From: Escherichia phage CMSTMSU
Sequence record: MH494197.1
Direction: 5' to 3' (one strand)
DNA: 64,000 nucleotides
Shown here: one piece after another, positions 1,978-24,180 of the stretch
Layout of the letters: each line of letters starts with the position of its first letter
Numbering within the stretch: the stretch's first letter is position 1
Translations under genes and position numbers: made by a program
Notes under the pieces: generated by a model
What the model saw: only the letters and a program-made list of their open reading frames with translations
What the model was told of the DNA's origin: nothing
Database searches by the model: none

Positions 1978-2406
1978 CTATTTTTTGTATTTTAAAATAA
2001 AATCTCTTGCTGCTTTCATAAGTTTAAATGGAATAGCTAATTCTTTAACAGTACTATCCATGAAATGTTCTTCTTCTGTATCATAGAATGTTGACGTGTA
2101 GTGTTCACAATCATCAATTCTATCCCAGATACTTGGCGTGTCAGCAATAACAGTGATTTGTTTATCAGTTTTGGTATGTGCCGCATGTACCGTAAATCCA
2201 ATATCACCCGTTTCAACACGAATTACAAACGATTTATCAGATATATAGCTCAACCAGCAATCTTTACCGAAGTATACAGTACTGTGTTTCTTCTCAAATG
2301 TATTACTGTTTTCAAGTACATCAATGACAATATCAACCTCATTATCACTTAAAATTTTATTCATATCATCTTCCTCGTAGGTTTCTGGCAATTTCAAATA
2401 TACCAT
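1978..2406 (-). CDS. hypothetical protein, acidic-FQ-x-S motif family member (variant TEEEHFMDSTV)
   Basis: ORF 142 aa; C-proximal motif shared with paralogs listed in findings. Confidence 0.5.
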   Translation of the reverse strand: MVYLKLPETYEEDDMNKILSDNEVDIVIDVLENSNTFEKKHSTVYFGKDCWLSYISDKSFVIRVETGDIGFTVHAAHTKTDKQITVIADTPSIWDRIDDCEHYTSTFYDTEEEHFMDSTVKELAIPFKLMKAARDFILKYKK

Positions 2407-2770
2407 TTATGTTGTCAACTGACAATCCACACATATCGTATAATGTAGATAGCTGAAAGAACATATCTTCATCTATAGTAACATGTTCAATCTGCATTTG
2501 CAAGAGCACTTCACCAAGAAAATGATCGTATGTTTGTATCTTAAAAGAATCATAATATATATCAATGAAGAATTTTGGCACACCATAGAACGAAACGACA
2601 AGTACAATGTTGTCAGAAGCTTCACATGGAACACTCAATGTATTTTTAAATGAACGGTATTCAAATGTGTACGGGTCTACGTCACATGTATAGAATGAAC
2701 TACACCCTTCAGAAAATATTACACCATTTTCAATTAGCATAGATAGTGTATGTGGTGGAATTTTCAACAT
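2366..2770 (-). CDS. hypothetical protein, acidic-FQ-x-S motif family member (DEDMFFQLSTL)
   Basis: ORF 134 aa; conserved motif; true start probably an internal Met. Confidence 0.5.
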   Translation of the reverse strand: MLKIPPHTLSMLIENGVIFSEGCSSFYTCDVDPYTFEYRSFKNTLSVPCEASDNIVLVVSFYGVPKFFIDIYYDSFKIQTYDHFLGEVLLQMQIEHVTIDEDMFFQLSTLYDMCGLSVDNINGIFEIARNLRGR

Positions 2771-3053
2771 TTAAATGTTTATCCTTTATTTTGTTGTACG
2801 TTTTATGTAGTACACCACAAATATAAAATAATTTACTTAGATTAGAATAACTTATGTTAGTTAGATCGTATACGAAATTTAGTTGCATGTACATATCTTC
2901 AGTTAAATCATACAACGATTCATCCACATCAATTACGATTTTGTGCGTGGTATCAATCTCTACTTTATTAGGCCACATATCAATAACATAATCATTACCA
3001 TGTTTTTCAGATATGGAAATGAACACATTATCGCTTTGTTCTAAAAACTCCAT
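2730..3053 (-). CDS. hypothetical protein, possible diverged family member
   Basis: ORF 107 aa; motif-like TEDMYMQLNFV. Confidence 0.4.
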   Translation of the reverse strand: MEFLEQSDNVFISISEKHGNDYVIDMWPNKVEIDTTHKIVIDVDESLYDLTEDMYMQLNFVYDLTNISYSNLSKLFYICGVLHKTYNKIKDKHLNVENSTTYTIYAN

Positions 3054-3204
3054 GTATCCGTTAAGAAATGATCCAGTTATTATCTCATATTCACCAGAAT
3101 AATACGTTGTTCTGGACTCAAATGCATTAAAAATATAAAACGATATGTTTGGTTGATATACTCATCCATTAAACTAATAACTTCTTTATTCATTACATTA
3201 ATCC

Positions 3205-3240
3205 CACAAGAAAAAGGCCGATTCATAATGAATCAGCCTT
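3205..3240 (-). terminator. rho-independent terminator (hairpin plus U-tract)
   Basis: Imperfect 13 bp inverted repeat aaggccgattcat/atgaatcagcctt followed on minus-strand RNA by UUUUUCUU. Confidence 0.5.
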
Positions 3241-3429
3241 AAGTATAACACAGTAGAAGTAAAATGTCAACTTCTAAAATACAGTATCAAAGAGGAATAA
3301 AAAGATACTGTTAGAGGGTAATGAATATAATGAACCATGAGGGTGATATCATTATACTTTAAAAGAGTGATAGCTTCTAGACAAAAGGAGGAATTCAGTA
3401 CCGACTAGAAGCTATCCGGTTAAACGATT

Positions 3430-3633
3430 TCAGTACTGAATGTTTAGTTTAGGATGAGTATGTCCATCTTCGATTTGCTTTAGAATCGAGTCGCGGATCT
3501 CTACTGCACCCTGATAACTGTATTTATCGTTCGGAACTACCCATGTATATTCACCATCAGTGGTTTTAAAATCAATACATGGATTGTCTCTGTATTCAGA
3601 TGCAATGATTGAAATAACATGCAATGAATTCAA
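3430..3633 (-). CDS. hypothetical protein (67 aa)
   Basis: ORF from track. Confidence 0.4.
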   Translation of the reverse strand: MNSLHVISIIASEYRDNPCIDFKTTDGEYTWVVPNDKYSYQGAVEIRDSILKQIEDGHTHPKLNIQY

Positions 3634-4039
3634 TGAATGATTTGTATAAGGATAATTGTTATTGTCTCGGAACGTGAATGTTTTAGTTCATCAGGTGCAA
3701 CAATAAATTCCATTATTCATCCTCGTACTTCTTGAATGGTGGAACATCTCCATTGAAGTCTTTGCACATCTTAGTTGCACGAACTTCAGTATTGTTGTGG
3801 TAATTTTTCTTAAATTCATAAGAAACATAATTACGAATACCGTGTATGAATAATAGCAAGAACCAATGTACGACCAAATAAGCATAACAAATTCAAAACA
3901 TATTAAGCTCCGAGTTATGGATTAATCAAACGACACATACCAACTATAACATTTATCTCTTCTAATGTCAAGTCACCAATGTCATTTATCATTGAGTACT
4001 GGAATAATGACTCTTCTGTGTACTCAAAATCACGTACTG

Positions 4040-4273
4040 CTATAAAATTGGCTCCTTAGAAACATCTAATGTTATCTTAGCCATTGTACTATATAAATCA
4101 AATTGATACAAAATATTAGGAGAAGTATATGCTATGTATAAATTATTAGATTCTGATGGATGTACCAGTGTGAATACATCATAACATAATATTTTTATGT
4201 TAGGATCATCAAAATTACCAGTATGAAGATTCTTACGAACATCTTGCATTATACGAGTTATTAAACTAGTCAT
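4040..4273 (-). CDS. hypothetical protein (77 aa)
   Basis: ORF from track. Confidence 0.4.
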   Translation of the reverse strand: MTSLITRIMQDVRKNLHTGNFDDPNIKILCYDVFTLVHPSESNNLYIAYTSPNILYQFDLYSTMAKITLDVSKEPIL

Positions 4274-4565
4274 TAAAGGGATTTGGAACCTCTTCTGGAA
4301 TCAATCTTTGAACTTTAAGTATAGCTTTAATGTCCTCAAATGTCAATCCATTTAGATCGTTTACGAGACAGTACTGGAAGAATTTTTCTTCAGTATCTAT
4401 ATCGTCAAAATTCAATTCAATTCCAGTGTCATAATAATCACTATTTACATTAGCAATTCTGATTTTAACTCGTTCAAAATACACATCAAATGAATAAAAA
4501 TGATCATTGATTTCATAACCAAGAAAAATATTAAAACATTTACTCAAATCAGTGGTTTCGTTCAA
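4266..4565 (-). CDS. hypothetical protein, acidic-FQ motif family member (TEEKFFQYCLV)
   Basis: ORF 99 aa with conserved motif. Confidence 0.45.
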   Translation of the reverse strand: MNETTDLSKCFNIFLGYEINDHFYSFDVYFERVKIRIANVNSDYYDTGIELNFDDIDTEEKFFQYCLVNDLNGLTFEDIKAILKVQRLIPEEVPNPFND

Positions 4566-4697
4566 ATCGTCATCATAGCAAAAACTCTAACTTCACCAAT
4601 ATCTTTTAATTGTACATCATGTAGTGACCATGCGTTGTTTTTAATACGTAGTTCACCATTTTAACAATGTTGTATTTCATAGTGTACCTTTATTTTG

Positions 4698-4770
<73 letters not shown>

Positions 4771-4773
4771 TGA

Positions 4774-4856
<83 letters not shown>

Positions 4857-5110: not shown

Positions 5111-5112
5111 TA

Positions 5113-6321: not shown

Positions 6322-6341
6322 AAGTATGCCATATTTGTTTC

Positions 6342-6527
6342 CTATGAAATGAATGTAGCGTTAATTCCCATTATAAATGCAAATATACCAAACAATATCA
6401 GACCGATTGGTACAAAGATCATAGATCTATTTCCATGTTTCGATAAAAATCGTTCAACTGTAATTAAACGTATTGATATCGGAACCATTATAATAATATA
6501 CAATATTGAAAGAATTAAAAGTTGCAT
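6342..6527 (-). CDS. small membrane protein (two predicted TM helices)
   Basis: 61 aa, two hydrophobic stretches ILSILYIIIMVPI and IFVPIGLILFGIFAFIMGI. Confidence 0.4.
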   Translation of the reverse strand: MQLLILSILYIIIMVPISIRLITVERFLSKHGNRSMIFVPIGLILFGIFAFIMGINATFIS

Positions 6528-6556
6528 TTTAATTTCCTATTGTAATTTCGTTTTTG

Positions 6557-6961
<405 letters not shown>

Positions 6962-7000
6962 ATATCAATACTTAATACTACTGTCCAGTACTATTTTCAG

Positions 7001-7069
<69 letters not shown>

Positions 7070-7426
7070 GCGTTTCTGGAATTCATCTTCTGCATCAGCA
7101 CTTAGCTGGAAGGTAATGTATTGAGCATTTATACTATTTATTATATCACGTAAAGTGTTATTTGTCCTTTTATTTCTTCAAATGATTCAAAAACAATTTC
7201 ATCGTCATTTATAAGAAATGATTCGCCATATCCATTGAAAATGCGAATTCGGATTATCTTGACACCAGTTATTGGTATGGTCGGTCGTTAATTCTGAATT
7301 CAAAAATGATTTAAGAAACTCTTCATACTTTGAAATGTCTTTAACACTCATATCACCAACTTTAATTAAAAAATGGATGGTGACGCTTTTAAACGCCGCT
7401 GTTAATTCAGCTTTATAACCACCGTT

Positions 7427-7805: not shown

Positions 7806-8218
<413 letters not shown>

Positions 8219-8386: not shown

Positions 8387-8547
8387 TCATATTCGTACCA
8401 GTAGTTCAATTAAGTACATTTCATATGCTGGATCGTTGATAAGTTTATCATACAGATGTGGCTCTGAAATGAATTCCCAATGATACTTTAGCCATTTACC
8501 GATACCCGAATATCTAAAATTAATATCATTCATCCATTCTTCATGTG

Positions 8548-8551
<4 letters not shown>
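8387..8551 (-). CDS. small protein, MTHEEW family (54 aa)
   Basis: Manual translation MTHEEWMNDINFRYSGIGKWLKYHWEF...; ATGA stop/start overlaps with flanking copies. Confidence 0.5.
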
Positions 8552-8712
<161 letters not shown>

Positions 8713-8818: not shown

Positions 8819-8934
<116 letters not shown>

Positions 8935-9818: not shown

Positions 9819-9998
9819 TTAATCAATTATAATTAGGTGTTTCATTTCTTCAGTACTGAAGAATAAGCTATCACTGATCCTGTTACCATTGGAATCTACT
9901 ACATAATATATATTACCGTATTTCACCACTTCAATTCCATCAATTTCAATACGTGGTAACATGCGGATAATATCATCAGCACCGTACACTGATGACAT
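9819..9998 (-). CDS. small protein (59 aa) with family-like motif SLFFSTEE
   Basis: Manual translation MSSVYGADDIIRMLPRIEIDGIEVVKYGNIYYVVDSNGNRISDSLFFSTEEMKHLIIID; below track size cutoff. Confidence 0.4.
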   Translation of the reverse strand: MSSVYGADDIIRMLPRIEIDGIEVVKYGNIYYVVDSNGNRISDSLFFSTEEMKHLIIID

Positions 9999-10040: not shown

Positions 10041-10211
10041 CTATTTCCTAATTGCAAGCTCATAGATGAACCAGTGATTACTATCCGCATCAAGTACAAA
10101 TGATTTGAAAAGTTGTTTATCTTTTAACACATCATAATGACCTTGGCGTATACCAAAACCAAAAGGATTATGTTTAAATTTTAGTTCATCTAACCATTCT
10201 TTGTGTGTCAT
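10041..10211 (-). CDS. small protein, MTH(K)EW family (56 aa), distal paralog
   Basis: Manual translation MTHKEWLDELKFKHNPFGFGIRQGHYDVLKDKQLFKSFVLDADSNHWFIYELAIRK. Confidence 0.45.
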   Translation of the reverse strand: MTHKEWLDELKFKHNPFGFGIRQGHYDVLKDKQLFKSFVLDADSNHWFIYELAIRK

Positions 10212-10380
10212 CTTATTTTGTCCATGACTGCTATACTAAAATATGTACCAAAATCATCACAATTGATGATGTTGTTATAGTACTCGATTGTTACGCAATG
10301 ATATATACAATTCAAGCTTAAAATAGTATATATCTGCTGCATTTATATTATAGTGTAGATTAAACCACTCATCAAATGTC

Positions 10381-10716
10381 TTAGGCTGCATTATATTTAT
10401 CTTTATAAAAATCCATGATTTTAGTCAACAGTACTGCAATCGTATAATCTAAATCAGGATAAAGTAAATTGTACTGAAATTCTTCCTCTACACTATAGTT
10501 TGTGGTGCAGTACTGATAGTCTTTATAACCAATGGAAAAATGGTTAGGATACAATGTACAACGAAAACGATATGCTTCATCTGTCATATAATCATTGTAT
10601 TCAACACAGAAGTATAGTGATTTGGCATTTAATTCAATAAGCTCAACGAAACCATCAGGTAATGAATGGTTATAAATTACTGAATCTTCATTAAACCATT
10701 CATAGTATTTTTCCAA
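10381..10716 (-). CDS. hypothetical protein (111 aa)
   Basis: ORF from track. Confidence 0.45.
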   Translation of the reverse strand: MEKYYEWFNEDSVIYNHSLPDGFVELIELNAKSLYFCVEYNDYMTDEAYRFRCTLYPNHFSIGYKDYQYCTTNYSVEEEFQYNLLYPDLDYTIAVLLTKIMDFYKDKYNAA

Positions 10717-10802
10717 AAATCACTAATGGATACATCCAGACTTTGTATAGGTGGAGTAATGACAATTTGAACTTCGTTATTCATTTCGACCCTTACTATA
10801 TT

Positions 10803-11153
10803 TCACGTATGGGCTATCATACAGATCATAACTTTTTGTGCACGTTCTTTTCGGCGTTCATACATGATTCTATCATACTCTTTAGCTTTCTGATTTGCTT
10901 CATTATACAATTTTAAAATTAGCAAAAATGCATCAAGATCGGGATAGTTTGCTGGATTGATAGTACTCAGCATAAATCGTTCTTCTTCAGTTCTAGCTAA
11001 GTCAAATTCATACTTAATAGTTTTATACCCACTCCATTTATATATATGCGTTACTTTATTAGTAAGTACATTATATTCAACGAAGTCAGTACTACCATCA
11101 AGTACACGAGTAATCTTAATAGATGTACCAATGACAATCTGTACAGAACTCAT
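10803..11153 (-). CDS. hypothetical protein (116 aa)
   Basis: ORF from track. Confidence 0.45.
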   Translation of the reverse strand: MSSVQIVIGTSIKITRVLDGSTDFVEYNVLTNKVTHIYKWSGYKTIKYEFDLARTEEERFMLSTINPANYPDLDAFLLILKLYNEANQKAKEYDRIMYERRKERAQKVMICMIAHT

Positions 11154-11267
11154 TTCTGAAGTTTTAAAGTAAAAATGTTATTACGGCGAAGATTAACTTC
11201 TCGATCTCCAATGCGAACATGCTTAATAACTTCCATTAATGGTTCTGGGACACCACGAATCGGCATG

Positions 11268-11834
11268 TTAGTATTCCTCAACAACGGTTAGGAATCTATC
11301 CCAACCAGTATAAGTGAAATGATCAAAGTATTGTTTTTCGCCACCTACCATATATACTTCAATTAAACCGTGGTCGAAATAATTTTTGGTTTTAACTTCA
11401 GTTACAATTGCTTTATGTCTGAAACCATTATAATCAGTATATGTTACAATATCGTGAATTTTGATATTATCAGGTGTATAAGTGTTGGCGTTATTATTGA
11501 GAACATGAAGATGATGGTCTACGATTTCTTTACTGGAAATTACCCCAAATATGTTACCAGAAAATACTTTATTACCATTACAGGTCAATGCCCAGCCATC
11601 ACCAACTTCAATAGATTCAAATACATAATGTGTGCAAATTTTAGATACATCTGATGTATCCCAGTAATCACCATCAAGATTGGTGAATTTATAAACAGTT
11701 TTGAGTTTTTCGCCATCAAATGAAAGCAATGATACTCCGATAACAACCGTTCCGTCTTTAAGAATAATATTAAATTTATTATTTGTATTAAAGTATGCTT
11801 CTGACTCAGATGAGTTGAATTTAATAAAGTTCAT
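11268..11834 (-). CDS. hypothetical protein (188 aa)
   Basis: ORF from track. Confidence 0.5.
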   Translation of the reverse strand: MNFIKFNSSESEAYFNTNNKFNIILKDGTVVIGVSLLSFDGEKLKTVYKFTNLDGDYWDTSDVSKICTHYVFESIEVGDGWALTCNGNKVFSGNIFGVISSKEIVDHHLHVLNNNANTYTPDNIKIHDIVTYTDYNGFRHKAIVTEVKTKNYFDHGLIEVYMVGGEKQYFDHFTYTGWDRFLTVVEEY

Positions 11835-11997
11835 ATGTTCTCCTTAGTAAGTCATAGTATTATATCAGAGTTTCATTGCACTTACCAGCATGTTTTCATA
11901 ACTTCTGTGATGTAAATCATTTTATCTTTTAGTTCATAAGGGATGCAAATTTCACGGGCTTAACGTTGTGTTCTTTTGAAACTCATCCTCTTCGGAA

Positions 11998-12270
11998 TCA
12001 GCCGTAAAATGGATGCGTCACAAAGTTATCATCAACTGGACGATTATGTGGTTTCATTAATGCATCATGATTGACAAAATAATAAGCATCAATATCAGGA
12101 CGGAAATACAAACAATCAACCTTAATGCACGGGTGTAACCATAAGGACAAAGAATATGTTATTTGGTTACCAATTTGTCTTGGACCAGATGCAATTGTAT
12201 TGATGTTATTTTTATCTTGTACCATTTCATAAATGAAATCTATCATTTCACGTAGTTCAGATTCAGTCAT
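11998..12270 (-). CDS. hypothetical protein (90 aa)
   Basis: ORF from track; AAGGAA Shine-Dalgarno just upstream of ATG. Confidence 0.5.
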   Translation of the reverse strand: MTESELREMIDFIYEMVQDKNNINTIASGPRQIGNQITYSLSLWLHPCIKVDCLYFRPDIDAYYFVNHDALMKPHNRPVDDNFVTHPFYG

Positions 12271-12280
12271 TTTATTTCCT

Positions 12281-12308
12281 TAAAAAATACCCAGTACTAG
12301 ACTGGGTA
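12281..12308 (-). terminator. rho-independent terminator (hairpin tacccagt-ACTAG-actgggta plus U6)
   Basis: 8 bp perfect stem, 5 nt loop, followed on minus RNA by UUUUUU; contains AGTACT core. Confidence 0.55.
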
Positions 12309-12486
12309 TAAAGTAATGTTCAATCAGATTTCTTTTCGTAATCTGCAAAACAGTCAGGATTGTTGCACACAGTGAATCAACTGCTGCTGCGTTTTCATCA
12401 AGGGATTTCGCTAGTTCTTGAATCTCTTGAAGTTTTACTACTAAGTCAATTTTTGATTACTCATTACTTCTCCTATTGAATGTATT

Positions 12487-13616: not shown

Positions 13617-13704
13617 ATGGTTTGCATTTTACATCTGCCGATAATATACATTATATCATACTTTTCAGCGTTGTCCCAAAAATTAATTATTTTTAGAACA
13701 AATT

Positions 13705-14037
13705 TCACGACTGGTAACTCTGTTTCGTTTGATTCGGATTCATTATATCCGTTCTTCGTGAGAACGTCAATAACTTTTTAGAATCGATTGTAAATTTATC
13801 AAGTTCAGTATAACGATAATAACCAATGGTCTGACTGAACTCATACTCACGACGCTGACGGCAACATGTTTGTGTTTCTGACATAATTGCATTGATTAGA
13901 TAATAAGATTCAGTACTATCATTGTTTGGTACATAAATCTTACCATCAAAATGAATCACTTCATGCTTATTCATACAGTGAGTTAATCTCCGATTGAAGA
14001 ATTGAAATAATTTCCTTTTGAAGACCTGTAATTTCAC
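13705..14037 (-). CDS. hypothetical protein (110 aa)
   Basis: ORF from track. Confidence 0.45.
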   Translation of the reverse strand: MKLQVFKRKLFQFFNRRLTHCMNKHEVIHFDGKIYVPNNDSTESYYLINAIMSETQTCCRQRREYEFSQTIGYYRYTELDKFTIDSKKLLTFSRRTDIMNPNQTKQSYQS

Positions 14038-14234
14038 TGTTCAGTGAGGATAAACGTTTGGTCAATGCCATAAACTGTTTAGCGTCTTCTTTGGAACGGT
14101 CGTTACGAACTTTATCGGAACTCCAGTTAGCGTATGATTGCTCATCTTTTTGTTAAGAATGTCCCAGTCCAAACGGACTAGTTTTCGTTCTTTCTTAAGT
14201 TCGCTTAGGCGAGATTTCATTTCTTCTTTAGTCA

Positions 14235-14441
14235 TTACAAGGTTCCTTTCATAAAGTCAGGGATAACGATTACGATAGAAGGATTATACTCCACATATCC
14301 ATTCTTTGTCAATAGACTTTTGATATCAGAAATAACATTATCATGTTGTTCCATATCTTTATCGCAGTGAATTTCCAATTCTTTTAGGAAAGGTTGTTTA
14401 ACTGAAATTGATTGGGTCAGTGTTTGAATACGCTGCATCAT
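14235..14441 (-). CDS. hypothetical protein (68 aa)
   Basis: ORF from track. Confidence 0.4.
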   Translation of the reverse strand: MMQRIQTLTQSISVKQPFLKELEIHCDKDMEQHDNVISDIKSLLTKNGYVEYNPSIVIVIPDFMKGTL

Positions 14442-14649
14442 ATCAATTGGATCAGACTGAACTCATTACCAACATAAAGTGTGCCAGATGCATCCTTTTC
14501 AAGTAAGACTTCTAAAATTTTCATTTTGTACCCTTTAATGTACCAAAATTACGTAGAGTAAATCCGGAACTGGGAAATATACATCACAGTCAATGTCAGG
14601 ATTAATTGTCACTACCTCATTACACATTATATCACGAATCCACTTCCGT

Positions 14650-14997
14650 CTACGATTTTTGCATTAAATCGTTCCATTCTTTTCGTTCAATAACATATGT
14701 GTTAATCAAACACAAGTCATGACCACGTTTCGAAATATAACCAAGTACTACATCATTGTGGACAACACGTATAGTAACTTTTCCAATTCGAGTTCCTCGT
14801 ACTGCATTAGTACTAGTATCGTCGTAAATCAGTTCTATCCTAAGTGAACCATTAGATATAAGAGTTGTGGTATATTTTGAAACCATATTCTCAATTTCTT
14901 GAGTTAAATCGTCTCGGTTAAGGTACTCAAACACCGAATATGTCAACTCATTTGCATCCAAATATTGGACTGTTGGAAGCTGGGCAACCATATCCAA
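14650..14997 (-). CDS. hypothetical protein (115 aa)
   Basis: ORF from track. Confidence 0.45.
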   Translation of the reverse strand: MDMVAQLPTVQYLDANELTYSVFEYLNRDDLTQEIENMVSKYTTTLISNGSLRIELIYDDTSTNAVRGTRIGKVTIRVVHNDVVLGYISKRGHDLCLINTYVIERKEWNDLMQKS

Positions 14998-15061
14998 AGA
15001 TACAGGTTCTATGTATATTTTTCAATATCAGATGTTTTGACGAATAGATACCCTTCTAGCG

Positions 15062-15352
15062 TCATTGAACTAACAATTTCCGCATAATAAGAGTACAGAT
15101 AAAAACATTCGTCTCATTCGAATCAGTTTCTACCCAAACCTCTGGCTGTTTCATCTCATATTGTTGTAGAATTCGTTGTGTAAACCCAATGTAAAATCCA
15201 AGATTAACATCGGATTGAGTTTCAAATGGATTAAACATCAAATATGGATATTTGTCAAGATACTCATTGAACTTACGCTGGGTATCTCTATCACAATCAA
15301 TGATGTACTTTCGGAATTCAGAAATAATTACTTTTTCCAATGACATAATCAA
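15062..15352 (-). CDS. hypothetical protein (96 aa)
   Basis: ORF from track. Confidence 0.45.
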   Translation of the reverse strand: MIMSLEKVIISEFRKYIIDCDRDTQRKFNEYLDKYPYLMFNPFETQSDVNLGFYIGFTQRILQQYEMKQPEVWVETDSNETNVFICTLIMRKLLVQ

Positions 15353-15546
15353 TCCTCACGATGCATATAGTACATAAACATCGCCAACCATATGCAGAAT
15401 CCCACGCAACGAAGAAACAGATCAACTGTTGGGTCTGTACCACCATTAACTTGGTAAACGATTACTGGGATTAAAGAAATAGCAATAGACACTGTACATA
15501 AGATGAATGCAACAAACACCTCAAACATAAACTTAATCGTTTCCAT
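15349..15546 (-). CDS. small membrane protein (two TM helices)
   Basis: 65 aa with two hydrophobic segments; 4 nt overlap with downstream ORF. Confidence 0.45.
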   Translation of the reverse strand: METIKFMFEVFVAFILCTVSIAISLIPVIVYQVNGGTDPTVDLFLRCVGFCIWLAMFMYYMHRED

Positions 15547-16117
15547 TATTATCCTTCAATGTGTAGTGTAGTACATCTAAAAAGTTATACATTGATTCAT
15601 TACGCATAACCTTGATTGTTAAATTACCACAACCCAACATACGTTTGAGGCGACGCTTCACAGCAGTTAAATCATGAGAACTATTTGTGTACAGACCATT
15701 AACCTGTCCGAACAGTAGGAACATGAAGAATGTAATCATAATTCATTAGTAAGCGTTGATTATATTTCTTTAATGCTTGCTTGTATTCTGAAATATTTTC
15801 AAAGAATGTACAATAACGGTCATAACGATTCATTTTATTCAAAATTGAAATACGAAAAGCGTTACCACTATTCCAATCATCTTCAGTTGGGTTTGGGTTG
15901 ATATGTGCCATGTTAGCTGTACTATACCCACCACTTGTGAAAACTTCAGAATATCCATTCTCAAAACATACAATGTTGCTTTGTGTCCTCGGAATTCTTT
16001 ACGGTACTTTGACAGAACTTGAATGTGATTACGCTTGGACTTGTACATTTCGTAACCTTCATAATCGCCACTGAATTCACAAATTTTATCAACACCAGCC
16101 ATTTCGTATATCCTCAT
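15533..16117 (-). CDS. hypothetical protein(s), frame-interrupted region
   Basis: Three overlapping ORF fragments at 15533-15739, 15699-15911 and 15839-16117 in different frames. Confidence 0.3.
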
Positions 16118-16633
16118 TTGATTAATATAGGAGTATTATACATACTCCATTTTCATGTGTCAAGCTTTATAATACGGAAGACTTTTCACTAAAGATTCTG
16201 ACGTATTATTTTTACCCATGTACTACCGTTGTCATTGGATACATATCCAATACCATTAACAAACTTACGCATAATACCAGTAAAAATATTAGTATACACC
16301 ATTACTCAGTATCCTTTGGTTTAGAATGTAAACCATACTTTTCATCATAACGATCATAGGTAGTGCCATTAGTACTAGTTTTGATGCTTTCGGTGCGATT
16401 GATTGGTTCGATTTTGACACCACGATAACCAATCTCTTCTTTAAATTGTTCCCATGATTCACGTAGACTCATTTTAGTCCCTTTTTGTTATTTCATACAC
16501 TCACGTAGGTCAATCTTTTCAACTGAACCACCGAGTACTAGATAGTGAAAATTAGAATCTTTGTTTGCCATATTCAAAAGATCTGCTTTCTGTTGAAGCG
16601 TAAAGCGTGAAGTACTGTTACGTACTGGCATAG

Positions 16634-16828
16634 TTACTCCTTAAAGTAGATATCACGAATTTGCTTAATCATCTCTAACTCTTGAAGTCCTATCATACCA
16701 AAGTTTTCTTGTACTGTCAACTGTTGGAAGTACATTTCCTCTAAATTATTATAAGGAATATCCACTAATGATAAAGGTACTCGTTCTTCACTGAATGCCA
16801 GATCTTCAACTAAATGTTTTATAATCAT
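16634..16828 (-). CDS. hypothetical protein, acidic-FQ motif family member (LEEMYFQQLTV)
   Basis: ORF 64 aa with conserved motif. Confidence 0.45.
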   Translation of the reverse strand: MIIKHLVEDLAFSEERVPLSLVDIPYNNLEEMYFQQLTVQENFGMIGLQELEMIKQIRDIYFKE

Positions 16829-17156
16829 AACAGTAAATGAATCTTTTGTATATGAAATTTGTAAAACGTTTGGTTAGTAGTGAACATTGTGTTTGATGGA
16901 TGGAAACCCATTTCAACAAATACTGTATCTTTATCATTATGTGTGCAATATGTACATCTTGAATTCGCAAGAACTTTAGATTTTGGGTAATAAAATCACC
17001 CAGCAACTTCTGTCGTTTCCAGTCCTCATATACAACTGGATGCTTAACCTTCTTCAAACGGTGCAGTACTGTCATAGTTTTTCCAGTCCAATGAATCGAA
17101 ATCGATTTGTTCAGGGTTATCAACAGCGACAACTCGTGCATTATGAAGAGTTTCAA
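16806..17156 (-). CDS. hypothetical protein (116 aa)
   Basis: ORF from track. Confidence 0.4.
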   Translation of the reverse strand: MKLFIMHELSLLITLNKSISIHWTGKTMTVLHRLKKVKHPVVYEDWKRQKLLGDFITQNLKFLRIQDVHIAHIMIKIQYLLKWVSIHQTQCSLLTKRFTNFIYKRFIYCYDYKTFS

Positions 17157-17207
17157 AGTAGCCGTTCCACGGTGTTCGTAATGGAACTGTCACATCGCCA
17201 ACTTTAA

Positions 17208-17453
17208 CTAAGAATGAATATTCTGGTGATATTGGGTCAAACCACTCTTTTGTTTAGCATTTTCGACGATGGTTTCGTGTTCTTTTGTATAGCAATTATC
17301 TTGCTTCATATAAAACACCCAATGCTCTTTTAGGCACTGTAAAGCAGCAACTGCTTCCTCTTTAGAAGACCATTGAATATCAATTGTATTAAGAACGTCA
17401 TAACAATTTTCAGTATCACCTGTAGTGTAATGTACTTCAATGCAGTATTTCAT
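17208..17453 (-). CDS. hypothetical protein (81 aa)
   Basis: ORF from track. Confidence 0.45.
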   Translation of the reverse strand: MKYCIEVHYTTGDTENCYDVLNTIDIQWSSKEEAVAALQCLKEHWVFYMKQDNCYTKEHETIVENAKQKSGLTQYHQNIHS

Positions 17454-17487
17454 TATTCAACACCTTTTAGTAATTTACAAATTTCAA

Positions 17488-17907
17488 TCATATGATAATA
17501 ACATGTATTCCAAAATTGCCCAGTAGTACTACCAACATCATGCACAGTACTTTGTTGGAAAACATATTCATCATTGAACAACTTTTAATGTCATCAATGT
17601 AAAATTCTGGTTTTGAATCATTATTGTATTCAATACTCGTTTCACCATCTGGATCAAGTGAAATTGATGATATGTCGTGAATTCCTATCGGATTTGTTGG
17701 ATAAATTCTCAACGTAAGAGGATAGAAGTCTGGATCGGTTTCATATGTATATTCGATTATGTAATTACCATCTCCAGTGATTGAGTTATATTTAAATGTA
17801 GGTTCAAATACATTATGGATATTATAGCCTAGTTTATTCATCTCGTTAAGATGTAATAATATTTTATGTAAAGTCCCTAATACATGAATCAAATTATCAA
17901 TTTTCAT
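17488..17907 (-). CDS. hypothetical protein (139 aa)
   Basis: ORF from track. Confidence 0.45.
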   Translation of the reverse strand: MKIDNLIHVLGTLHKILLHLNEMNKLGYNIHNVFEPTFKYNSITGDGNYIIEYTYETDPDFYPLTLRIYPTNPIGIHDISSISLDPDGETSIEYNNDSKPEFYIDDIKSCSMMNMFSNKVLCMMLVVLLGNFGIHVIII

Positions 17908-18007
17908 TTACGATCCTTTGAAAAGTTCAGTTTAAAAGTTTTACCAAATTCCATTGTAGCTTTACCCAGATTGTTAATATTTTCTTTCAACATTTCTTGC
18001 ATCTTTC

Positions 18008-18205
18008 TCACACTTTCATTCCGGCTTCTTCTTCTTTGCGGAGGATTGGTCGCAATCGTTCCTGAATATCGTTGAAACGTGTATTGAGTTCAACCAATGA
18101 TTCATATGTGAAATCTTTCATGTCGATGATAGTACTTCGTTGAAAGAATTCTTCTTCGGATAAATTACTTAAAATGATTTTATCACTACCAATAGATAAT
18201 GTCAA
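18008..18205 (-). CDS. hypothetical protein, acidic-FQ motif family member (SEEEFFQRSTI)
   Basis: ORF 65 aa with conserved motif. Confidence 0.45.
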   Translation of the reverse strand: MTLSIGSDKIILSNLSEEEFFQRSTIIDMKDFTYESLVELNTRFNDIQERLRPILRKEEEAGMKV

Positions 18206-18481
18206 TTCATCATCTTGATTTTTTTAATTACAATACGTACAGGTGATTTTATAGTAATGTGAACATCATGATTATTAAAAGTTTCAGTTTTGTTTGACGT
18301 TCTGAATTGTAGTCTTCCGGTTAGTGCGTGTACTGGCATTGGGTTCTTTTACCAGTAATAACATCTTCCCACGAATCAAGGATATTATTAATAATTTTAA
18401 CATAAGGAACTGTCATATATGCACCTATGAAAAATCCACGCATAGCGTGGATCTGTAATTAATCGAGTATAGTAACTTCAA

Positions 18482-18935
18482 TCAAACGAATTTCGATGAA
18501 TTCGTTTTCAGTTTCCATGATGAACCTAATTTCTTATTAAGTTCAGTTTTAACATCACTTTTAAATTTTCCCATAGTATTAGGAATAATTTGTTTGGTTA
18601 GTTTATCGTAACCACAATAAAACATAGGTTTCTCCCTTCGAGATATTAGCTGAACAAAATCCTTTGGATATGCAGGTATATTATGCATCACTTCATGAAT
18701 GCACTCAGTACTTGAATCTTGTACTTTGTACATTACATTAAGTTTACCTTTGAAAGTGCCAATCATATCAACAATAATACCTTTACCGGATTTAAGTAAA
18801 GTTCCATTCTTTGTATGAGAACAATAGAATACCTCATCACCAATATTAGGATAGTACAAATTAAATTCTAATTCTTCCTTTGATGACTGACGTTGAAATT
18901 TCATTACACGTTCAGTATAGGTGGGGTAGTTCTTC
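18482..18935 (-). CDS. hypothetical protein (about 150 aa)
   Basis: Track ORF 18482-18988 trimmed to internal Met because the methyltransferase C-terminus occupies another frame to 18940. Confidence 0.4.
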
Positions 18936-18939
18936 ATGT

Positions 18940-19797
18940 TCAAAAGAATATCTCTCTTAGTAAGTGTGATATAACTGGCATAGTCCATCCATTCCCAAGC
19001 ATTTTGTATGCTTGTGTCTTACTAGACACTTTAAAGAAATCTACAGGAATACCCTGTAATTTACAACATTCTACTACACTTAAGTGTCTATAGTCAATAT
19101 TTCTTTTACCATTCTCCAATAGATATTGACGATTAATCGTTGGTCACGAAACACCAACTGTCGTCTTGATTTATTAAAGTACTGGTTACAATCACCACCC
19201 TTAAAATAGTTAGCATCTATACAGTACGAAGCGGTTCTGTCAGTGTACCAACCATCTTCAATGATATCTTGAAGTTTAGGGCATTTGATAATGCAGGTGG
19301 TATAAAAAGCTTATCAGTACTGCACCAGTAGTATCTCTGCCTGAAGTGAGGCGTATAATGCTGGGAATTTATCAGTACTGGTGTGATTCCTAAAATACTA
19401 TTAATGTATTCTTTGAAATCTTCCTTCATTTTAACATTCTCGAACAGAAATTGCAAGTTTGGATTTACACTTTTGATGTGCTCAAAAATATCAACCATAA
19501 CCAAAAATAACTGTCCACGTATATCATTCAAGCCACCTTGCTTACCAGCAACAGACCGAGCTTGACATGGGAATCCTCCCATGAGTAAATCTATCTTATC
19601 CCACTCAATATTCCATTCTTTCCACTTAGTCACATCACCTAACTGGATAATATCAGGAAAATTCTCGGAAGATTCAGCAATTGCGTACTTGTCAATTTCA
19701 GATGAGTAATATTTTTCAACTGGAATACCTGCATCTGCCAATGCCATATATCCAACGCTCATTCCATTAAAAGTGACAGTACTCTGATAGGTTTCAT
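18940..19797 (-). CDS. DNA (cytosine-5)-methyltransferase, orphan; at least 3 frameshifts
   Basis: Manual three-frame reading: N-term MKPIRVLSLF-NGMSVG (motif I), GGFPCQ (catalytic PCQ), ENV (motif VI), ECCKLQGIPVDFF and GNGWTMPV (motifs IX/X). Confidence 0.75.
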
Positions 19798-19849
19798 ATA
19801 AAATCCTTTTATATTGTTAAGGTACTATAATACATTATAGCATCTTATT

Positions 19850-20436
19850 TAGAAATCTTCCAGACTTTTTCATCGCACCATCGAGAAGTACAGATGATCG
19901 CAGATGCAAGAATTGAAGCACTGGCTCGACCACCACCAAGTAAGTACTGGCTAATGACACCAATCATATTGAAGACTTTATCATACTCAGCAAGGAGTTC
20001 AAAATCCTTCTTCCAACATTGATATTCTTCTTCAGTAACATTAAACTCATCACCAAGTTCATTTAAAATCTTTTAAGTACTGCACGATGTTCACTCATCT
20101 GATTCCCCATATCGTTCGTCGTAAAAATCATCATCACGGTCCAATGGTTCTTTTGGTTTTCTGCCATATATTTCCTCACATGGTAAATGTATTATCACCA
20201 TCCATATCTTCATCTGTAGCTTCAGCTAAGGTCTTAATCGTTAGCAATTCACGCTTCACGTACAACATGAAGACCTTTTCATAATTACCGAACATCATCT
20301 CAGGTGACATGTAATTCTCCGTTACAATGACGATTGGACGGCCCTGTGACAGCATACGAAACATAGTACGGTATTTGTCAAAGGTGCGAAATTCATCCAT
20401 GTTCATCATGTGGCGTTTACGAACTACTTTAGTCAT
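19850..20436 (-). CDS. hypothetical protein (frame-interrupted)
   Basis: ORF 20176-20436 continues downstream in other frames. Confidence 0.35.
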
Positions 20437-20450
20437 TTTGATACCTTTAG

Positions 20451-20711
20451 TTAATTGAACTCGATTTCTGGATAATGATTATAGAACATCTCACGTACTG
20501 CGTCAAGCTGTTCTTTAAATTTCTCAATGTCATCAAGAGTTAGTACAGTGTTACTAACTGTACTCAACTGAAAAAGTGCCTCTTCAGTACTGTTTTCTGA
20601 TAAATCAAATGTACATGATGAATCATCTGTTATAATATTATCACATATTTCAAATGTGTCAATATGAACATCATTGAGTAGATCACCACTATAATCATTA
20701 TATATGAACAC
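20451..20711 (-). CDS. hypothetical protein, acidic-FQ motif family member (TEEALFQLSTV)
   Basis: ORF 86 aa with conserved motif. Confidence 0.5.
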   Translation of the reverse strand: MFIYNDYSGDLLNDVHIDTFEICDNIITDDSSCTFDLSENSTEEALFQLSTVSNTVLTLDDIEKFKEQLDAVREMFYNHYPEIEFN

Positions 20712-20907
20712 AAAAATGTATGATGGTTTTTATCTCAGTTTCTGACTCATAGGCTACCAAATCATATGTTACGTAACATTTAAAGTCAGGTGAATCGTAT
20801 TCCATAGATACAATTCCTATATCACGATATTGATTCGCTTCACTGATTAAATCCGGTATAGGTGTAATACTAAGTAAATGGAAAAACTGTCCGGATTTAG
20901 CATTTGA

Positions 20908-21351
20908 TTACCTTCGGTTTTGCTCTGTGATATCAAACATAGATAGAACGAAATCATTTAGCTTTTCAACACAATTGATTATAGTGCTTAAATCAGAATA
21001 ACTAACTGTTAAATTTTTAACAAGAGATTCCTGAAAGTATCCTTCTTCAGTTGAGCAATAACTCACATTTGAGATAGTCTCATAATGTATATCTTTGCTT
21101 GTTTTACATGTTATAATTTCTATTATATCCGATGTTGTGTTATATAATAATATAAATGTTGTTGTTCGTGAATTCTTATTGTAAAATGCGAGTTCAGTGC
21201 TGTCATATGTTTTCTCAATAAGAACATTGTACTCTTCCGAAAACGATGTGGAAATTCTAATTATCTCTTCTGGATCAGGAACATAAGAGCCATCAAATTT
21301 ACAAGACAATGCAATTTCAAAATGATTTTTTATTTCATCAATTTTCATCAT
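20908..21351 (-). CDS. hypothetical protein, acidic-FQ motif family member (TEEGYFQESLV)
   Basis: ORF 147 aa with conserved motif. Confidence 0.5.
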   Translation of the reverse strand: MMKIDEIKNHFEIALSCKFDGSYVPDPEEIIRISTSFSEEYNVLIEKTYDSTELAFYNKNSRTTTFILLYNTTSDIIEIITCKTSKDIHYETISNVSYCSTEEGYFQESLVKNLTVSYSDLSTIINCVEKLNDFVLSMFDITEQNRR

Positions 21352-21382
21352 AGCTCACCATTTAATTTGCTATTTACATATT

Positions 21383-21742
21383 CTAATGCTTTTTAACAAT
21401 GCCAATTTCGGTAACTCCTATTACATTTTTCTCGATTAACGACAATTGAAATAGTTCATCTTCCTCAATATCAATACTATGGGTTCTTGACCAATAATCG
21501 TTGAAGTCATATGCATATCGTATTGTATTTTCTTTAATATCAAGTACCAATATAACCATACCATCGTGTAGGTATGTCAGTGTTTTTCCGTATATATTAA
21601 AAATTAACCTATCTGGTGTACCCAATGGAAGATGAATTATATTTTGTGTAGTTCCAACAATAACAAAATCATTATCTATATTTTTATTCAAGTCACCTAG
21701 AATGTCATATATAGTAGTCATGTTAATCTTGACCCTCAGCAT
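21383..21742 (-). CDS. hypothetical protein, acidic-FQ motif family member (EEDELFQLSLI)
   Basis: ORF 119 aa with conserved motif. Confidence 0.5.
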   Translation of the reverse strand: MLRVKINMTTIYDILGDLNKNIDNDFVIVGTTQNIIHLPLGTPDRLIFNIYGKTLTYLHDGMVILVLDIKENTIRYAYDFNDYWSRTHSIDIEEDELFQLSLIEKNVIGVTEIGIVKKH

Positions 21743-21757
21743 TTCTGATGATTCGCA

Positions 21758-21988
21758 TTACTTCTCTGGATACGTTGTATACTTTTTATAGTACTCAAAT
21801 GTAACTGAACCAAAATCATTAACAGTACTATCCATGAAGAACGATTCTTCGGTGCAATACACACCAGTAATTGAAACATGCTCTTGATGGAATTTAGCAT
21901 CTTTCCAGTAACGGAATTCGAAAATAAATTGACCGTCATGACCGACCCTACAACACTCAGCACGGTCACTGTCTACGCAGCAAATCAC
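21758..21988 (-). CDS. hypothetical protein, family variant (TEESFFMDSTV)
   Basis: ORF 76 aa; motif matches 1978-2406 variant. Confidence 0.45.
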   Translation of the reverse strand: MICCVDSDRAECCRVGHDGQFIFEFRYWKDAKFHQEHVSITGVYCTEESFFMDSTVNDFGSVTFEYYKKYTTYPEK

Positions 21989-22138
21989 AATATCCCTTTC
22001 GAGTCATACCAGATATTTCCAATATTTGTTTCAATAACTGCATAATCAATTTTTGTAGAATTGGGAATTACACCTTTTTGCCAGTACTAGACTGGTATTA
22101 TCAATATCCAGTAAACTTACCATATCAACTCCCCACTA

Positions 22139-22534
22139 TTACTGTGTTTTAATTTCTAACAATTCACTATACATCTTCTTCAATTGTACAATATCTTCAT
22201 ATAAAATACCACCCATATCATCAATCAAAGAACGTTGGAATAGTGATTCATCTGACTGTATCGTGTCCAAATCAGAAATTTTCAATACTGTAACTGGGTT
22301 TAGGGTGTTTACAATAAGTTTGTTTGTGTATGGTATGTATGTGATCTTGATATTCATTTCCGAATCAAGGGCATACAACCTCAAAACAGACAAATCACCA
22401 CAAAGTTGGATTTTTGGTTCATCAAACTCATCAGACCACCACATAGTACTAGTCATATAATTGACGTGTTGGTTCAAATGTGATATATCCAAATCGAAAT
22501 AATATTTTAGTTCATTGTGTAAATCTAAACTCAT
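22139..22534 (-). CDS. hypothetical protein, acidic-FQ motif family member (SDESLFQRSLI)
   Basis: ORF 131 aa with conserved motif. Confidence 0.5.
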   Translation of the reverse strand: MSLDLHNELKYYFDLDISHLNQHVNYMTSTMWWSDEFDEPKIQLCGDLSVLRLYALDSEMNIKITYIPYTNKLIVNTLNPVTVLKISDLDTIQSDESLFQRSLIDDMGGILYEDIVQLKKMYSELLEIKTQ

Positions 22535-22589
22535 AAATTTATCCTCTATGCATCATTATCTTACAGTGTAGGATAAACCCACGATAATG

Positions 22590-22838
22590 TCAAGATGTGA
22601 ATTGCTTATACCAGTGATACAGTTCTTTCAATTCTTCAGTACTGAATAGAACATCTTCAATCGTTGTTTGTTGGAAGTGGTAATCTTCGTTTAAGTACAT
22701 TGAAATATTTTTATATACTTTTCGATTACATTTCCCAAGAAATGATGTTCTTTTGGATGTATATTCAATAAATGTTAACTTATCTAATTCTACATCCAAT
22801 GACAATTTCATACAGTATTCAGTATCATCTACGTACAT
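22590..22838 (-). CDS. hypothetical protein, family-like (EDVLFSTEEL)
   Basis: ORF 82 aa. Confidence 0.45.
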   Translation of the reverse strand: MYVDDTEYCMKLSLDVELDKLTFIEYTSKRTSFLGKCNRKVYKNISMYLNEDYHFQQTTIEDVLFSTEELKELYHWYKQFTS

Positions 22839-23002
22839 AAGTTTATTTGAATAACAATCAACTGTGATATATTCTTTATGTGAGAATTGGTATATACCAT
22901 TAAATTTTTACCATTTGTACTTCTGAATTTTTCAAGGTAATAAGAGAGTGGTTTAGATATTGTACTACCAATAGTATTATTCATAGAACCTCAAAATTTA
23001 GA

Positions 23003-23030
23003 CAAGAAAAATGCCCCGAAGGTCGGGGCA
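23003..23030 (-). terminator. rho-independent terminator (strong GC hairpin)
   Basis: Hairpin tgccccga-agg-tcggggca followed on minus RNA by UUUUUCUUGUC. Confidence 0.6.
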
Positions 23031-23139
23031 GTACGAAAAAGATTTTGTACAAAAAGGGAATAATACAATAAAATAATAACGCATCATTATTATGTAAGGG
23101 AGGAAAGTAACATGATAATGTTAACCATTACTGGTATAA

Positions 23140-23687
23140 TTATTTATCATTTAATTCTTTTAATTGAGCTTGTATATCACCAGAAAGTTTACGGATTTTC
23201 TTGAAACAGTAAACACTATCATCAAGTTCAAGTTCTAGGCCGTGTGTGATTGCATAAAGCATTTCAGCAAGTACTAGATCCTGACGCATCCAGTTACCAT
23301 TCTTATAGGTTGTCATTACACAATAAGGACAGTGGCTGTTTCCGGTTTGTTTACCGAACACAGATTGGATTGTATCATGCTTGAAACCCACAAAGATTGG
23401 TTGATCTTGTTGATTTCAGCTACTACGTCCATTTGTGCACCAGTGTTGATTGCAAACACTTGGTCACCGTTCTCGGTTTTGTTAATGTTTAGTTCAATAT
23501 CACTACCAAGTTTACGAACAGCCAATGTATAAAGTAGGATTTCATACATATCATAATTGGTTGTTTCGCCATTTGGTGCAGTTACATCGAGACTAACACC
23601 ATGCATTTTAACTTCAGTACTGAATCCATCTTTATCTGCTAGAAAATCAGTGATTTGTTCAGTTAGGATTTTAATTTGGTCAATCAT
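23140..23687 (-). CDS. hypothetical protein with Cys-rich HCPYC segment (one frameshift)
   Basis: Fragments 23316-23687 and 23140-23391 are contiguous in different frames. Confidence 0.4.
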
Positions 23688-23703
23688 TATTCATATCCTT
23701 ATG

Positions 23704-23729
23704 TTGGAAAAGCCCCCATTACGGAGGCT
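23704..23729 (-). terminator. rho-independent terminator (imperfect hairpin)
   Basis: agccccc-attac-ggaggct followed on minus RNA by UUUUCC. Confidence 0.4.
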
Positions 23730-23742
23730 TTTGTTAATCTAA

Positions 23743-24180
23743 TTATAGGGAAGCTTCGTATTCAGCTACAATGTCAACCATCTCATTGACAAAGTTGATG
23801 TGGTCATGAGTTACAGTACGGAAATCATAAACCAGTGATTGTTGGAAGAATACGTCTTCAGCCAGATTACCTTCAAAGTTCAGGTCGATGTTTTCTTCAT
23901 CGTTGGTTGGAGCAACTTTGATATTTAGTTGATTTTCATCAACGACCAATTTCACTACACAACCCAATGCAATCGCCAGTACATAGGCAGGTTTCTTAGC
24001 TGCTTCAGAACGGAATGGAGCACGTAGTGCAAATGGTGCTGCTAATCTCATCATTCAGTTCTTTATATTTAACGTTAATCATCAGTTCTTCAATTTTGAC
24101 GCTCTCGATTACACGACCAGTTTCAGCAGCGAAGAAAGAGTGGTTACGGATAGTTTGTTCGATATTCATGTGTTATTCCT
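23743..24180 (-). CDS. hypothetical protein, acidic-FQ motif family member (AEDVFFQQSLV); N-terminal frameshift
   Basis: ORF 23743-24054 plus upstream ATG-initiated segment in another frame. Confidence 0.4.

Follow-up and report, generated by a model that had tools for sequence, protein, structure and literature searches.

A divergent multigene family of small, mostly acidic proteins in Escherichia phage CMSTMSU and related jumbo phages

Identification of the family

In a stretch of 64,000 nucleotides from Escherichia phage CMSTMSU (sequence record MH494197.1), in the following called the window, we identified 18 genes of a single multigene family, which is ancient and diverges fast and encodes soluble proteins, most of them acidic. 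Their products share a signature close to TEE-x-FFQ-x-S-T-V-x-D. An initial annotation, made from the letters of the DNA, had noticed this motif in at least 14 small minus-strand open reading frames (ORFs) of 60-150 amino acids (aa), and the ORFs and motif strings quoted there are present in the sequence. An iterated profile hidden Markov model (HMM), built from intact orthologs, matched 21 six-frame segments in the window, which were merged into the 18 genes. All of these HMM-positive genes are located on the minus strand between positions 1981 and 24169, and a scan of the remaining 40 kb (24.2-64 kb of the window) revealed no family members. Thirteen of the 14 ORFs listed in that annotation belong to the family, but the ORF at 9819-9998 has no HMM match. 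The expansion described earlier is real, although five members were overlooked (marked in the list below).

The window belongs to the 121Q/PBECO4/G17 group of jumbo E. coli myoviruses (genus Asteriusvirus). At positions 16000-24500, identity is 98.9% with the phages WPEC3 and fEgEco12 and about 86% with 121Q. The comparison with WPEC3 revealed 81 gap openings in 17 kb (window 10048-27000). Without exception they are deletions on the side of the window, and A/T homopolymers or CC(A/T)GG Dcm sites account for nearly all of them. This pattern is the signature of uncorrected long-read (nanopore-type) sequencing on Dcm-methylated DNA, which probably affects the whole window. The deletions split 12 of the 18 family genes, and many of the small ORFs are therefore fragments of longer genes. 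As a practical warning, ORF-based readings of this window are unreliable, since uncorrected long-read indels distort the pattern of small ORFs. Because of this fragmentation, the intact orthologs of WPEC3 (locus L001) served as proxies and were mapped back onto the window. The size range of 60-150 aa is in part an artefact of split genes; the length of intact orthologs is 119-180 aa, and their motif lies at residue 92-117, a position also found in 17 annotated WPEC3 proteins of 121-180 aa.

The members are listed with window coordinates, motif and HMM E-value; numbers of high-scoring segment pairs (HSPs) are from tblastn, and L001 coordinates refer to WPEC3.

Member 1, 1978-2406, minus strand: intact ORF of 142 aa; TEEEHFMDSTV (Q-to-M variant); E = 1.7e-13; ortholog L001:243-650
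Member 2, 2366-2770, minus strand: intact, 134 aa; DEDMFFQLSTL; E = 2e-22; second AlphaFold model, motif helix 101-110
Member 3, 2730-3193, minus strand: frameshifted; degenerate TEDMYMQLNFV; 2 HSPs in 2 frames against L001:1065-1481; E = 2.6e-21
Member 4, 3918-4273, minus strand: frameshifted; TEESLFQYSMI; HMM fragments 3918-4055 and 4043-4300; ortholog L001:2210-2569; overlooked initially
Member 5, 4266-4680, minus strand: two frameshifts; TEEKFFQYCLV; 3 HSPs; E = 5.6e-24; intact ortholog used for the first AlphaFold model
Member 6, 6968-7426, minus strand: frameshifted; weakest motif, ADEADEFQKRTV; HMM fragments 6968-7177 (E = 7e-09) and 7208-7426; ortholog L001:6295-6672 (hhalign 81%); overlooked initially
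Member 7, 7809-8158, minus strand: frameshifted; TEEEYFQMSTV, motif at 7898; E = 3.1e-09 (7809-7946); N-terminal ORF 7889-8158; overlooked initially
Member 8, 10789-11284, minus strand: frameshifted; TEEERFMLSTI; basic C-terminal extension; E = 8.8e-12; 2 HSPs; ortholog L001:10786-11274; overlooked initially
Member 9, 16634-17075, minus strand: two frameshifts; LEEMYFQQLTV; 3 HSPs in 3 frames; E = 1.4e-14
Member 10, 17453-17907, minus strand: frameshifted; NDEYVFQQSTV; HMM fragments 17456-17584 and 17491-17907; overlooked initially
Member 11, 17907-18443, minus strand: three frameshifts; SEEEFFQRSTI; 180 aa when intact, long basic C-terminal tail; 4 HSPs; E = 4.3e-14
Member 12, 20451-20892, minus strand: frameshifted; TEEALFQLSTV; 2 HSPs at 100% identity; E = 4.3e-16
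Member 13, 20908-21351, minus strand: 147 aa; TEEGYFQESLV; E = 1.5e-20
Member 14, 21383-21757, minus strand: EEDELFQLSLI; E = 1e-16
Member 15, 21758-22140, minus strand: frameshifted; TEESFFMDSTV (Q-to-M variant); E = 1.5e-12 (21761-22003); ortholog L001:21791-22195; upper boundary inferred from the coordinate offset
Member 16, 22139-22552, minus strand: SDESLFQRSLI; E = 7.5e-21
Member 17, 22590-22984, minus strand: frameshifted; NEDYHFQQTTI; E = 2.4e-16; fragment ORF 22829-22984 matches the N-terminus of the ortholog
Member 18, 23743-24169, minus strand: frameshifted; AEDVFFQQSLV; 2 HSPs; E = 2.4e-21

Frequency of the motif was analyzed in minus-strand stop-to-stop segments of at least 60 aa and compared with 2000 residue shuffles. 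The core [FYLMW]F[QM]x[SCL][TL][VIL] occurs 10 times, in contrast to a mean of 0.086 and a maximum of 2 in the shuffles, and the core with its acidic prefix 12 times (mean 0.002, maximum 1). The motif is thus enriched more than 100-fold over shuffled proteins. Convincing matches are found exclusively on the minus strand, and the position of the motif is equivalent in every member. The conserved serine is encoded by AGT in 8 copies and by TCN in 6, phenylalanine and glutamine each use both of their codons, and the nucleotide identity of the motif block among the copies is only 54%. The conservation is therefore at the level of the protein and not of the DNA, and a DNA-level repeat was ruled out by this codon analysis.

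Alignments by hhalign and the HMM reach far past the motif, up to 142 columns. The paralogs share about 11-30% pairwise identity, and the motif is the only segment which is strongly conserved among them. The earlier statement that the genes do not stem from recent duplication is borne out, as the family is an old expansion of divergent paralogs. With hhalign, members reached a probability of 81-99% versus at most 3.6% for all other neighbours of at least 90 aa; since the members were part of the profile, the independent value of this comparison is the negative result on the neighbours. Cryptic members among the similarly sized neighbours were ruled out in this way.

Over the whole family (n = 119), the motif positions show the following frequencies in percent: T56/S21, E94, E81/D12, x, F34/Y29/L22, F98, Q86/M13, x, S88, T59/L35, V49/I37/L14, x and D78. 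Pooled, D or E reaches 93% at the second acidic position, T or L 94% and V, I or L 100%. The residue following the glutamine varies (L 28%, Q 20%, E 11%, Y 9%). In 14 of 19 members the isoelectric point (pI) is below 5.3; the median pI is 4.56 with a net charge of about -10, compared to a pI of 5.98 for the neighbours. Transmembrane segments were not predicted in any of the family proteins.

Predicted fold and role of the motif

Two members were modelled with AlphaFold. The first model, of the intact ortholog of the gene at 4266-4680 with 19 paralogs as alignment, has a predicted local distance difference test value (pLDDT) of 85.2 and a predicted template modelling score of 0.77. It consists of a helix (residues 4-15), six strands within residues 20-91 and two further helices (98-107 and 115-125), the first of which is EEKFFQYCLV, the motif itself. 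The second model, of the gene at 2366-2770 with an alignment of 98 sequences, has an overall pLDDT of 67.7 and shows strands at 55-94 and helices at 101-110 and 118-133. Here, helix 101-110 (EDMFFQLSTL) is the best block with a pLDDT of 95. In both models the motif helix, with a pLDDT of about 90-95, is the most confident part and directly follows the last beta-strand. The motif thus has one topological position in the two models, as a helix and not as a linker, and a common fold instead of an exposed linker is what both paralog models predict.

All members are predicted to have one fold in common, with an N-terminal helix, an antiparallel sheet of about six strands and two C-terminal helices. 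That the motif forms the first C-terminal helix of this fold is well supported by the modelling. According to helix-capping rules and the conservation pattern, serine or threonine would act as N-cap and the two glutamates would fill the first turn. Phenylalanine, T/L and V/I would form the face that packs on the sheet, and the variable positions (i, i+4, i+8) an exposed stripe. The conservation pattern thus fits a capped amphipathic helix. With this packing role, the motif would be the structural keystone that keeps the divergent copies recognisable. An additional shared contact, such as an oligomer interface, may come from the conserved Q, S and D. Between orthologs, too, conservation is highest in the motif, with an identity of 86%, compared to 68% in the N-terminal part and 76% in the C-terminal part.

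Distribution of the family in other phages

Phage WPEC3 carries at least 21 copies, 19 of them in a 27.7-kb stretch of L001 (converged iterated HMM) and 2-3 outliers upstream. In 121Q, 18 syntenic one-to-one orthologs were found at the same locus, all of them intact. One member of WPEC3 (L001 9482-9985; TDEDVHFQESLV) is present neither in the window nor in 121Q. Insertion/deletion polymorphisms between the window and WPEC3 were seen at window ~6332-6716 versus L001 5005-6033 and at window ~10048-10142 versus L001 9416-10050. Besides this extra member, WPEC3 carries there an HNH (NUMOD4) endonuclease which the window lacks. One of the outliers (L002 5729-6379; LSEEQLFQYSLI) has 216 aa, lies outside the window and gives two HMM alignments (HMM positions 36-81 and 22-119), as if the N-terminal sheet region had been duplicated within the protein.

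For identification of distant members, 1.84 billion cluster representatives were searched exhaustively with the HMM. This revealed 106 proteins at E ≤ 1e-3 (50% identity clusters), nearly all of 115-170 aa. The strict core F[QM]x[SC][TL][VIL] is present in 93 of these 106 representatives, at residue ~92-131 in full-length proteins and earlier in truncated ones. In about 70 proteins, the likeness to the WPEC3 and 121Q copies is confined to the surroundings of the motif. When 50,697 phage records were searched by tblastn with the consensus of the family (E ≤ 1e-3), only Asteriusvirus genomes were detected; as this method was too insensitive, fetched loci were scanned with the HMM instead. Similarly, a word-index homolog search from the family alignment found only near-orthologs, and the exhaustive search was therefore needed.

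Erwinia phage Hallingskeid contains 22 members in a syntenic stretch of 47.6 kb, alongside a DNA methyltransferase, tRNAs and a sigma factor. It is also the nearest cultured relative of a metagenomic contig of 50 kb, which encodes one of the proteins alike around the motif only and carries 11 members within 20 kb. In Pectobacterium phage CBB (genus Mimasvirus), 5 members were found, whose annotation likens them to GAP32 proteins. Outside of Asteriusvirus, RaK2-like jumbo phages thus have 5-22 copies. Among the matches of a BFVD fold search, uncharacterised proteins of RaK2 and CBB are the best non-orthologous ones. Cross-genus reciprocal best hits were obtained for 7 of 19 members, all of them weak.

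The family had not been recognised from any described phage system in the initial annotation, and this holds. A Pfam search of 10 members gave only sub-threshold noise, with no MAM33 match at E ≤ 1, NCBIfam and PADLOC searches gave no matches, and the family profile of 98 sequences had no match among all PDB sequences at E ≤ 10. In PHROGs, the lineages are clustered as at least 10 separate families of unknown function (phrog_17453, 23322, 24941, 30548, 30841, 36084, 38573, 22160, 24321 and others), which cross-match weakly and around the motif only. The paralog lineages are thus treated there singly, as unrelated, whereas they form one family here. In the genome papers and reviews on 121Q, PBECO4, CBB, phAPEC6, fEgEco12 and PA5oct the family is not described.

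About 80% of the genes of jumbo phages have no known function. With this family, about 20 hypothetical genes per Asteriusvirus genome, and 5-22 in related genera, collapse into one. Missed by Pfam and NCBIfam and fragmented by PHROGs, the family can now be annotated by means of the HMM and the motif.

Evolution of the family genes

Compared with 121Q, the family genes have a median aa identity of 73%, versus 90% for 43 neighbouring genes. Their median omega is 0.29, versus 0.12 for these neighbours (Mann-Whitney p = 4e-4), with a range of 0.08-0.72. With the genes pooled, the N-terminal part has an omega of 0.33, and the motif together with the C-terminal part one of 0.19. Positive selection (omega > 1) was not detected in any family gene or in either pooled half, and the earlier proposal of diversifying selection is not supported by these values. 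Copies were also gained or lost between 99%-identical strains. The observed mode of evolution is fast divergence with gene turnover.

Genomic context and promoter-like sites

The family genes form tightly packed runs on the same strand with up to 5 adjacent members, in which stop and start codons overlap or abut (-1, -4, -7, -20 nt). A custom scan of the 64 kb for near-consensus sigma-70 promoters (at least 11 of 12 matches) revealed 29 sites on the coding strand versus none on the other, where about 2.9 would be expected per strand. Seventeen of the 29 are located within the first 25 kb, and five sites match the consensus perfectly (12/12). Three of the sites are as follows.

24434-24463, minus strand: sigma-70 promoter-like site TTGACA-18-TACAAT; 11/12; upstream of the cluster at 20.4-24.2 kb and present in WPEC3
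20478-20506, minus strand: near-consensus sigma-70 promoter-like site TTGACG-17-TATAAT
16135-16163, minus strand: sigma-70 promoter-like site with perfect consensus TTGACA-17-TATAAT; 12/12

Further examples of minus-strand promoter-like sites are at 5169, 9589, 14312 and 48306, next to the one at 16163 listed above.

The region had been called early, and it does carry hallmarks of transcription by the host RNA polymerase, namely the near-consensus sigma-70 promoters on the coding strand. In the related phage PA5oct, which is rifampicin-sensitive and depends on the host RNA polymerase, the early genes form a long block of small unknown ORFs (PMC7318152). From the promoter-like sequences and this analogy we infer that the family genes are transcribed early by the host RNA polymerase.

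In the virion proteome of phAPEC6, no protein was found between gp078c and gp149c, whose genes flank the region. These two were placed by size and strand and would correspond to CDS194/195 of WPEC3 and gp63/gp62 of 121Q. As no virion protein maps to the region, the family products appear to be non-virion proteins.

The region also holds a Dcm methylase gene and, in relatives, HNH endonucleases. The Dcm-type DNA cytosine methyltransferase has 286 aa in WPEC3 and 121Q and is split in the window, by the same kind of deletion errors, into 18940-19119 and 19217-19762 (minus strand). Many of the error sites coincide with CCWGG, the sequence targeted by this enzyme, in agreement with Dcm methylation of the phage DNA.

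Proposed function and alternative explanations

The initial annotation had proposed host-takeover or anti-defence effectors, which is a reasonable suggestion. In our reading, to which we assign a probability of about 0.6, the family is an ancient set of early, intracellular, diversified binding proteins for host takeover or anti-defence, with a shared fold in which the motif forms a helix. The host RNA polymerase would transcribe the genes early and the products would stay inside the cell, where the panel of diversified binding proteins would act in host takeover or anti-defence. Through the fast-evolving sheet, each paralog would recognise a target of its own, and the fold would be preserved by the conserved helix pair, which could also serve as an oligomer interface as in p32.

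Several points weigh against this proposal. Functional support, experimental or homology-based, was not found in the literature or database searches. Acidity is not universal, with four to five exceptions (3 of 19 members are basic and 2 near neutral). Early transcription is deduced from promoter-like sites and the analogy to PA5oct. In the second model the N-terminal half is poor and the overall pLDDT is about 68, and helix packing only partly accounts for the strong conservation of the polar Q, S and D.

Alternatively, the products could be acidic oligomers like p32/gC1qBP/MAM33 (doughnut trimers, maybe mixed), which act as decoys or chaperones for basic nucleic-acid-binding proteins, with the helix pair as trimer interface. 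Such an action can be compared with that of DNA-mimic anti-restriction proteins. The first model has the same order of elements as the p32 family (PF02330; PDB 1p32, 3qv0, 3jv1), i.e., a helix, an antiparallel sheet and two helices, and high acidity is shared by most members. In a Foldseek search against solved structures, 1p32, 6szw, 7te3, 1yqf and 3rpx rank first, but without significance (best E = 0.048, template modelling score ~0.3). For this reason, only a p32-like topology is suggested by the model, and membership in that family is not claimed. In contrast to the seven strands of p32, the model has six, the chain length is 30-40% below that of p32, several of the members are basic, and neither the MAM33 profile of Pfam nor any PDB sequence at E = 10 was matched. 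We consider this explanation rather unlikely.

The family could also have a phage-internal, non-antagonistic role, e.g., as assembly or replication accessories or as regulators of gene expression, in which case the divergence would reflect relaxed constraint on redundant copies instead of an arms race. This would agree with omega values below 1 throughout, with undetected positive selection and with the one-to-one synteny kept across Asteriusvirus genomes; moreover, relatives of p32/MAM33 are assembly chaperones. However, copy numbers range from 5 to 22 between genera, copies are gained or lost even between near-identical strains, and few orthologs are recognisable across genera, as seen from the weak reciprocal best hits. 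The genes are also located among promoter-rich early-type genes, tRNAs, the Dcm methylase and HNH endonucleases, outside of the morphogenesis and replication modules. An internal role is thus unlikely, and early binding proteins directed at the host remain the preferred reading.

In the initial annotation the motif was compared to a protease recognition site or a shared targeting or degron element. As a short linear signal on otherwise unrelated proteins, it could be a site cut after Q by a protease of the tobacco etch virus (TEV) or 3C type, a degron or a shared targeting peptide. It has a superficial likeness to ENLYFQ|S (TEV) and LEVLFQ|GP (3C), with an acidic stretch, aromatic residues and Q in common, and it is the sole strongly conserved segment among the paralogs. 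However, sites of the 3C and TEV type need G, S or A at P1', the position after the cut, which is highly variable here, and 13% of the members carry M in place of Q. The motif is predicted to be helical with top confidence at one topological position within the fold of both models, and its flanking hydrophobic residues are conserved in the pattern of a buried face. The members can be aligned over up to 142 columns and are therefore not unrelated proteins. As the products were not seen in virions, targeting to the capsid is unlikely as well. A linear signal is very improbable on these grounds, and the comparison to an exposed protease site or degron is not sustained.

It is still less probable that the motif is a peptide binding the beta sliding clamp (QL[SD]LF-like) which docks on host DnaN. 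Some copies read FQLSLI or FQLSTV and resemble QLSLF or QLxLxL, but L follows the glutamine in only 28%, the glutamine is M in 13%, and the motif is helical inside a fold, whereas clamp-binding motifs occupy disordered termini. Chance, compositional bias or a translated DNA-level repeat can be practically dismissed: the genome is AT-rich (~34% GC), which favours codons for F, I, K, N and E, but the enrichment over shuffles, the equivalent position in every member, the mixed serine codons with 54% nucleotide identity and the presence of the motif in phages with 36-40% GC speak against it.

Comparison with other multigene families of large viruses

Multigene families which act as 'genomic accordions' are well documented in large eukaryotic DNA viruses, e.g., the Bcl-2-like and ankyrin families of poxviruses and MGF360/505 of African swine fever virus (ASFV). 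Like these, the family described here consists of many divergent, clustered paralogs on one predicted fold (18 copies in 22 kb), has a variable copy number and lies in a non-structural, early-type region. In contrast, a bacterium serves as host, the fold is a different one, and a role in host range or immune evasion would be hypothetical here. The idea of gene accordions has also been discussed for large phages (PMC13359090).

Large expansions of a small domain within the genome of a jumbo phage are known as such. Bacillus phage G has about 35 copies of a zinc ribbon, a lineage-specific expansion (PMC7824862), and 22 paralogous ORFs were noted in phage CBB (PMC5259590), which may include the 5 CBB members of the present family. 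In contrast to these expansions, the domain is a different one and the family spans several genera; within the scope of our search it is not mentioned in either of the two papers. It is an undescribed family, unusual both for its size (about 20 copies per genome) and for its breadth (several genera).

The family could be the bacterial-virus counterpart of the poxvirus and ASFV families. It would then be an accordion of about 20 p32-like acidic decoys, each tuned via its variable sheet to a different defence or nucleic-acid-binding target, with the E-E-F-Q-S-D helix as shared oligomerisation or docking surface, and the repertoire would help to set the host range of RaK2-like jumbo phages. This picture is speculative and we give it little probability. 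The family is a candidate for studying the expansion and contraction of phage gene families, processes of which large eukaryotic viruses offer well-documented examples. Should the members turn out to interact with the host, prediction of the host range of therapeutic jumbo coliphages could draw on their repertoire.

Neighbouring genes

Six tRNA genes on the minus strand are interspersed among the family genes (4697-4850, 6556-6952 and 8819-8908). They comprise two Thr-TGT (tandem duplicates), Asn, Met, Ser-GCT and Ser-TGA, the same set as in fEgEco12.

A second, unrelated mini-family consists of proteins of 54-56 aa (MTHEEWMNDINFRYSGIG..KYHWE...) at 8387-8551, 8548-8712 and 10041-10211 (minus strand). 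Two of the copies are arranged in tandem with overlapping stop and start codons and the third is located 1.5 kb away; in WPEC3 and 121Q, three copies lie in tandem.

A further expansion of paralogs is found upstream of the region and outside the window, in WPEC3 L002 1-7581 (39.5-47.6 kb), where seven adjacent genes are annotated as RCC1-like paralogs ('regulator of chromosome condensation'). The 'DNA condensation proteins' of phAPEC6, which match these RCC1-like paralogs, are virion components.

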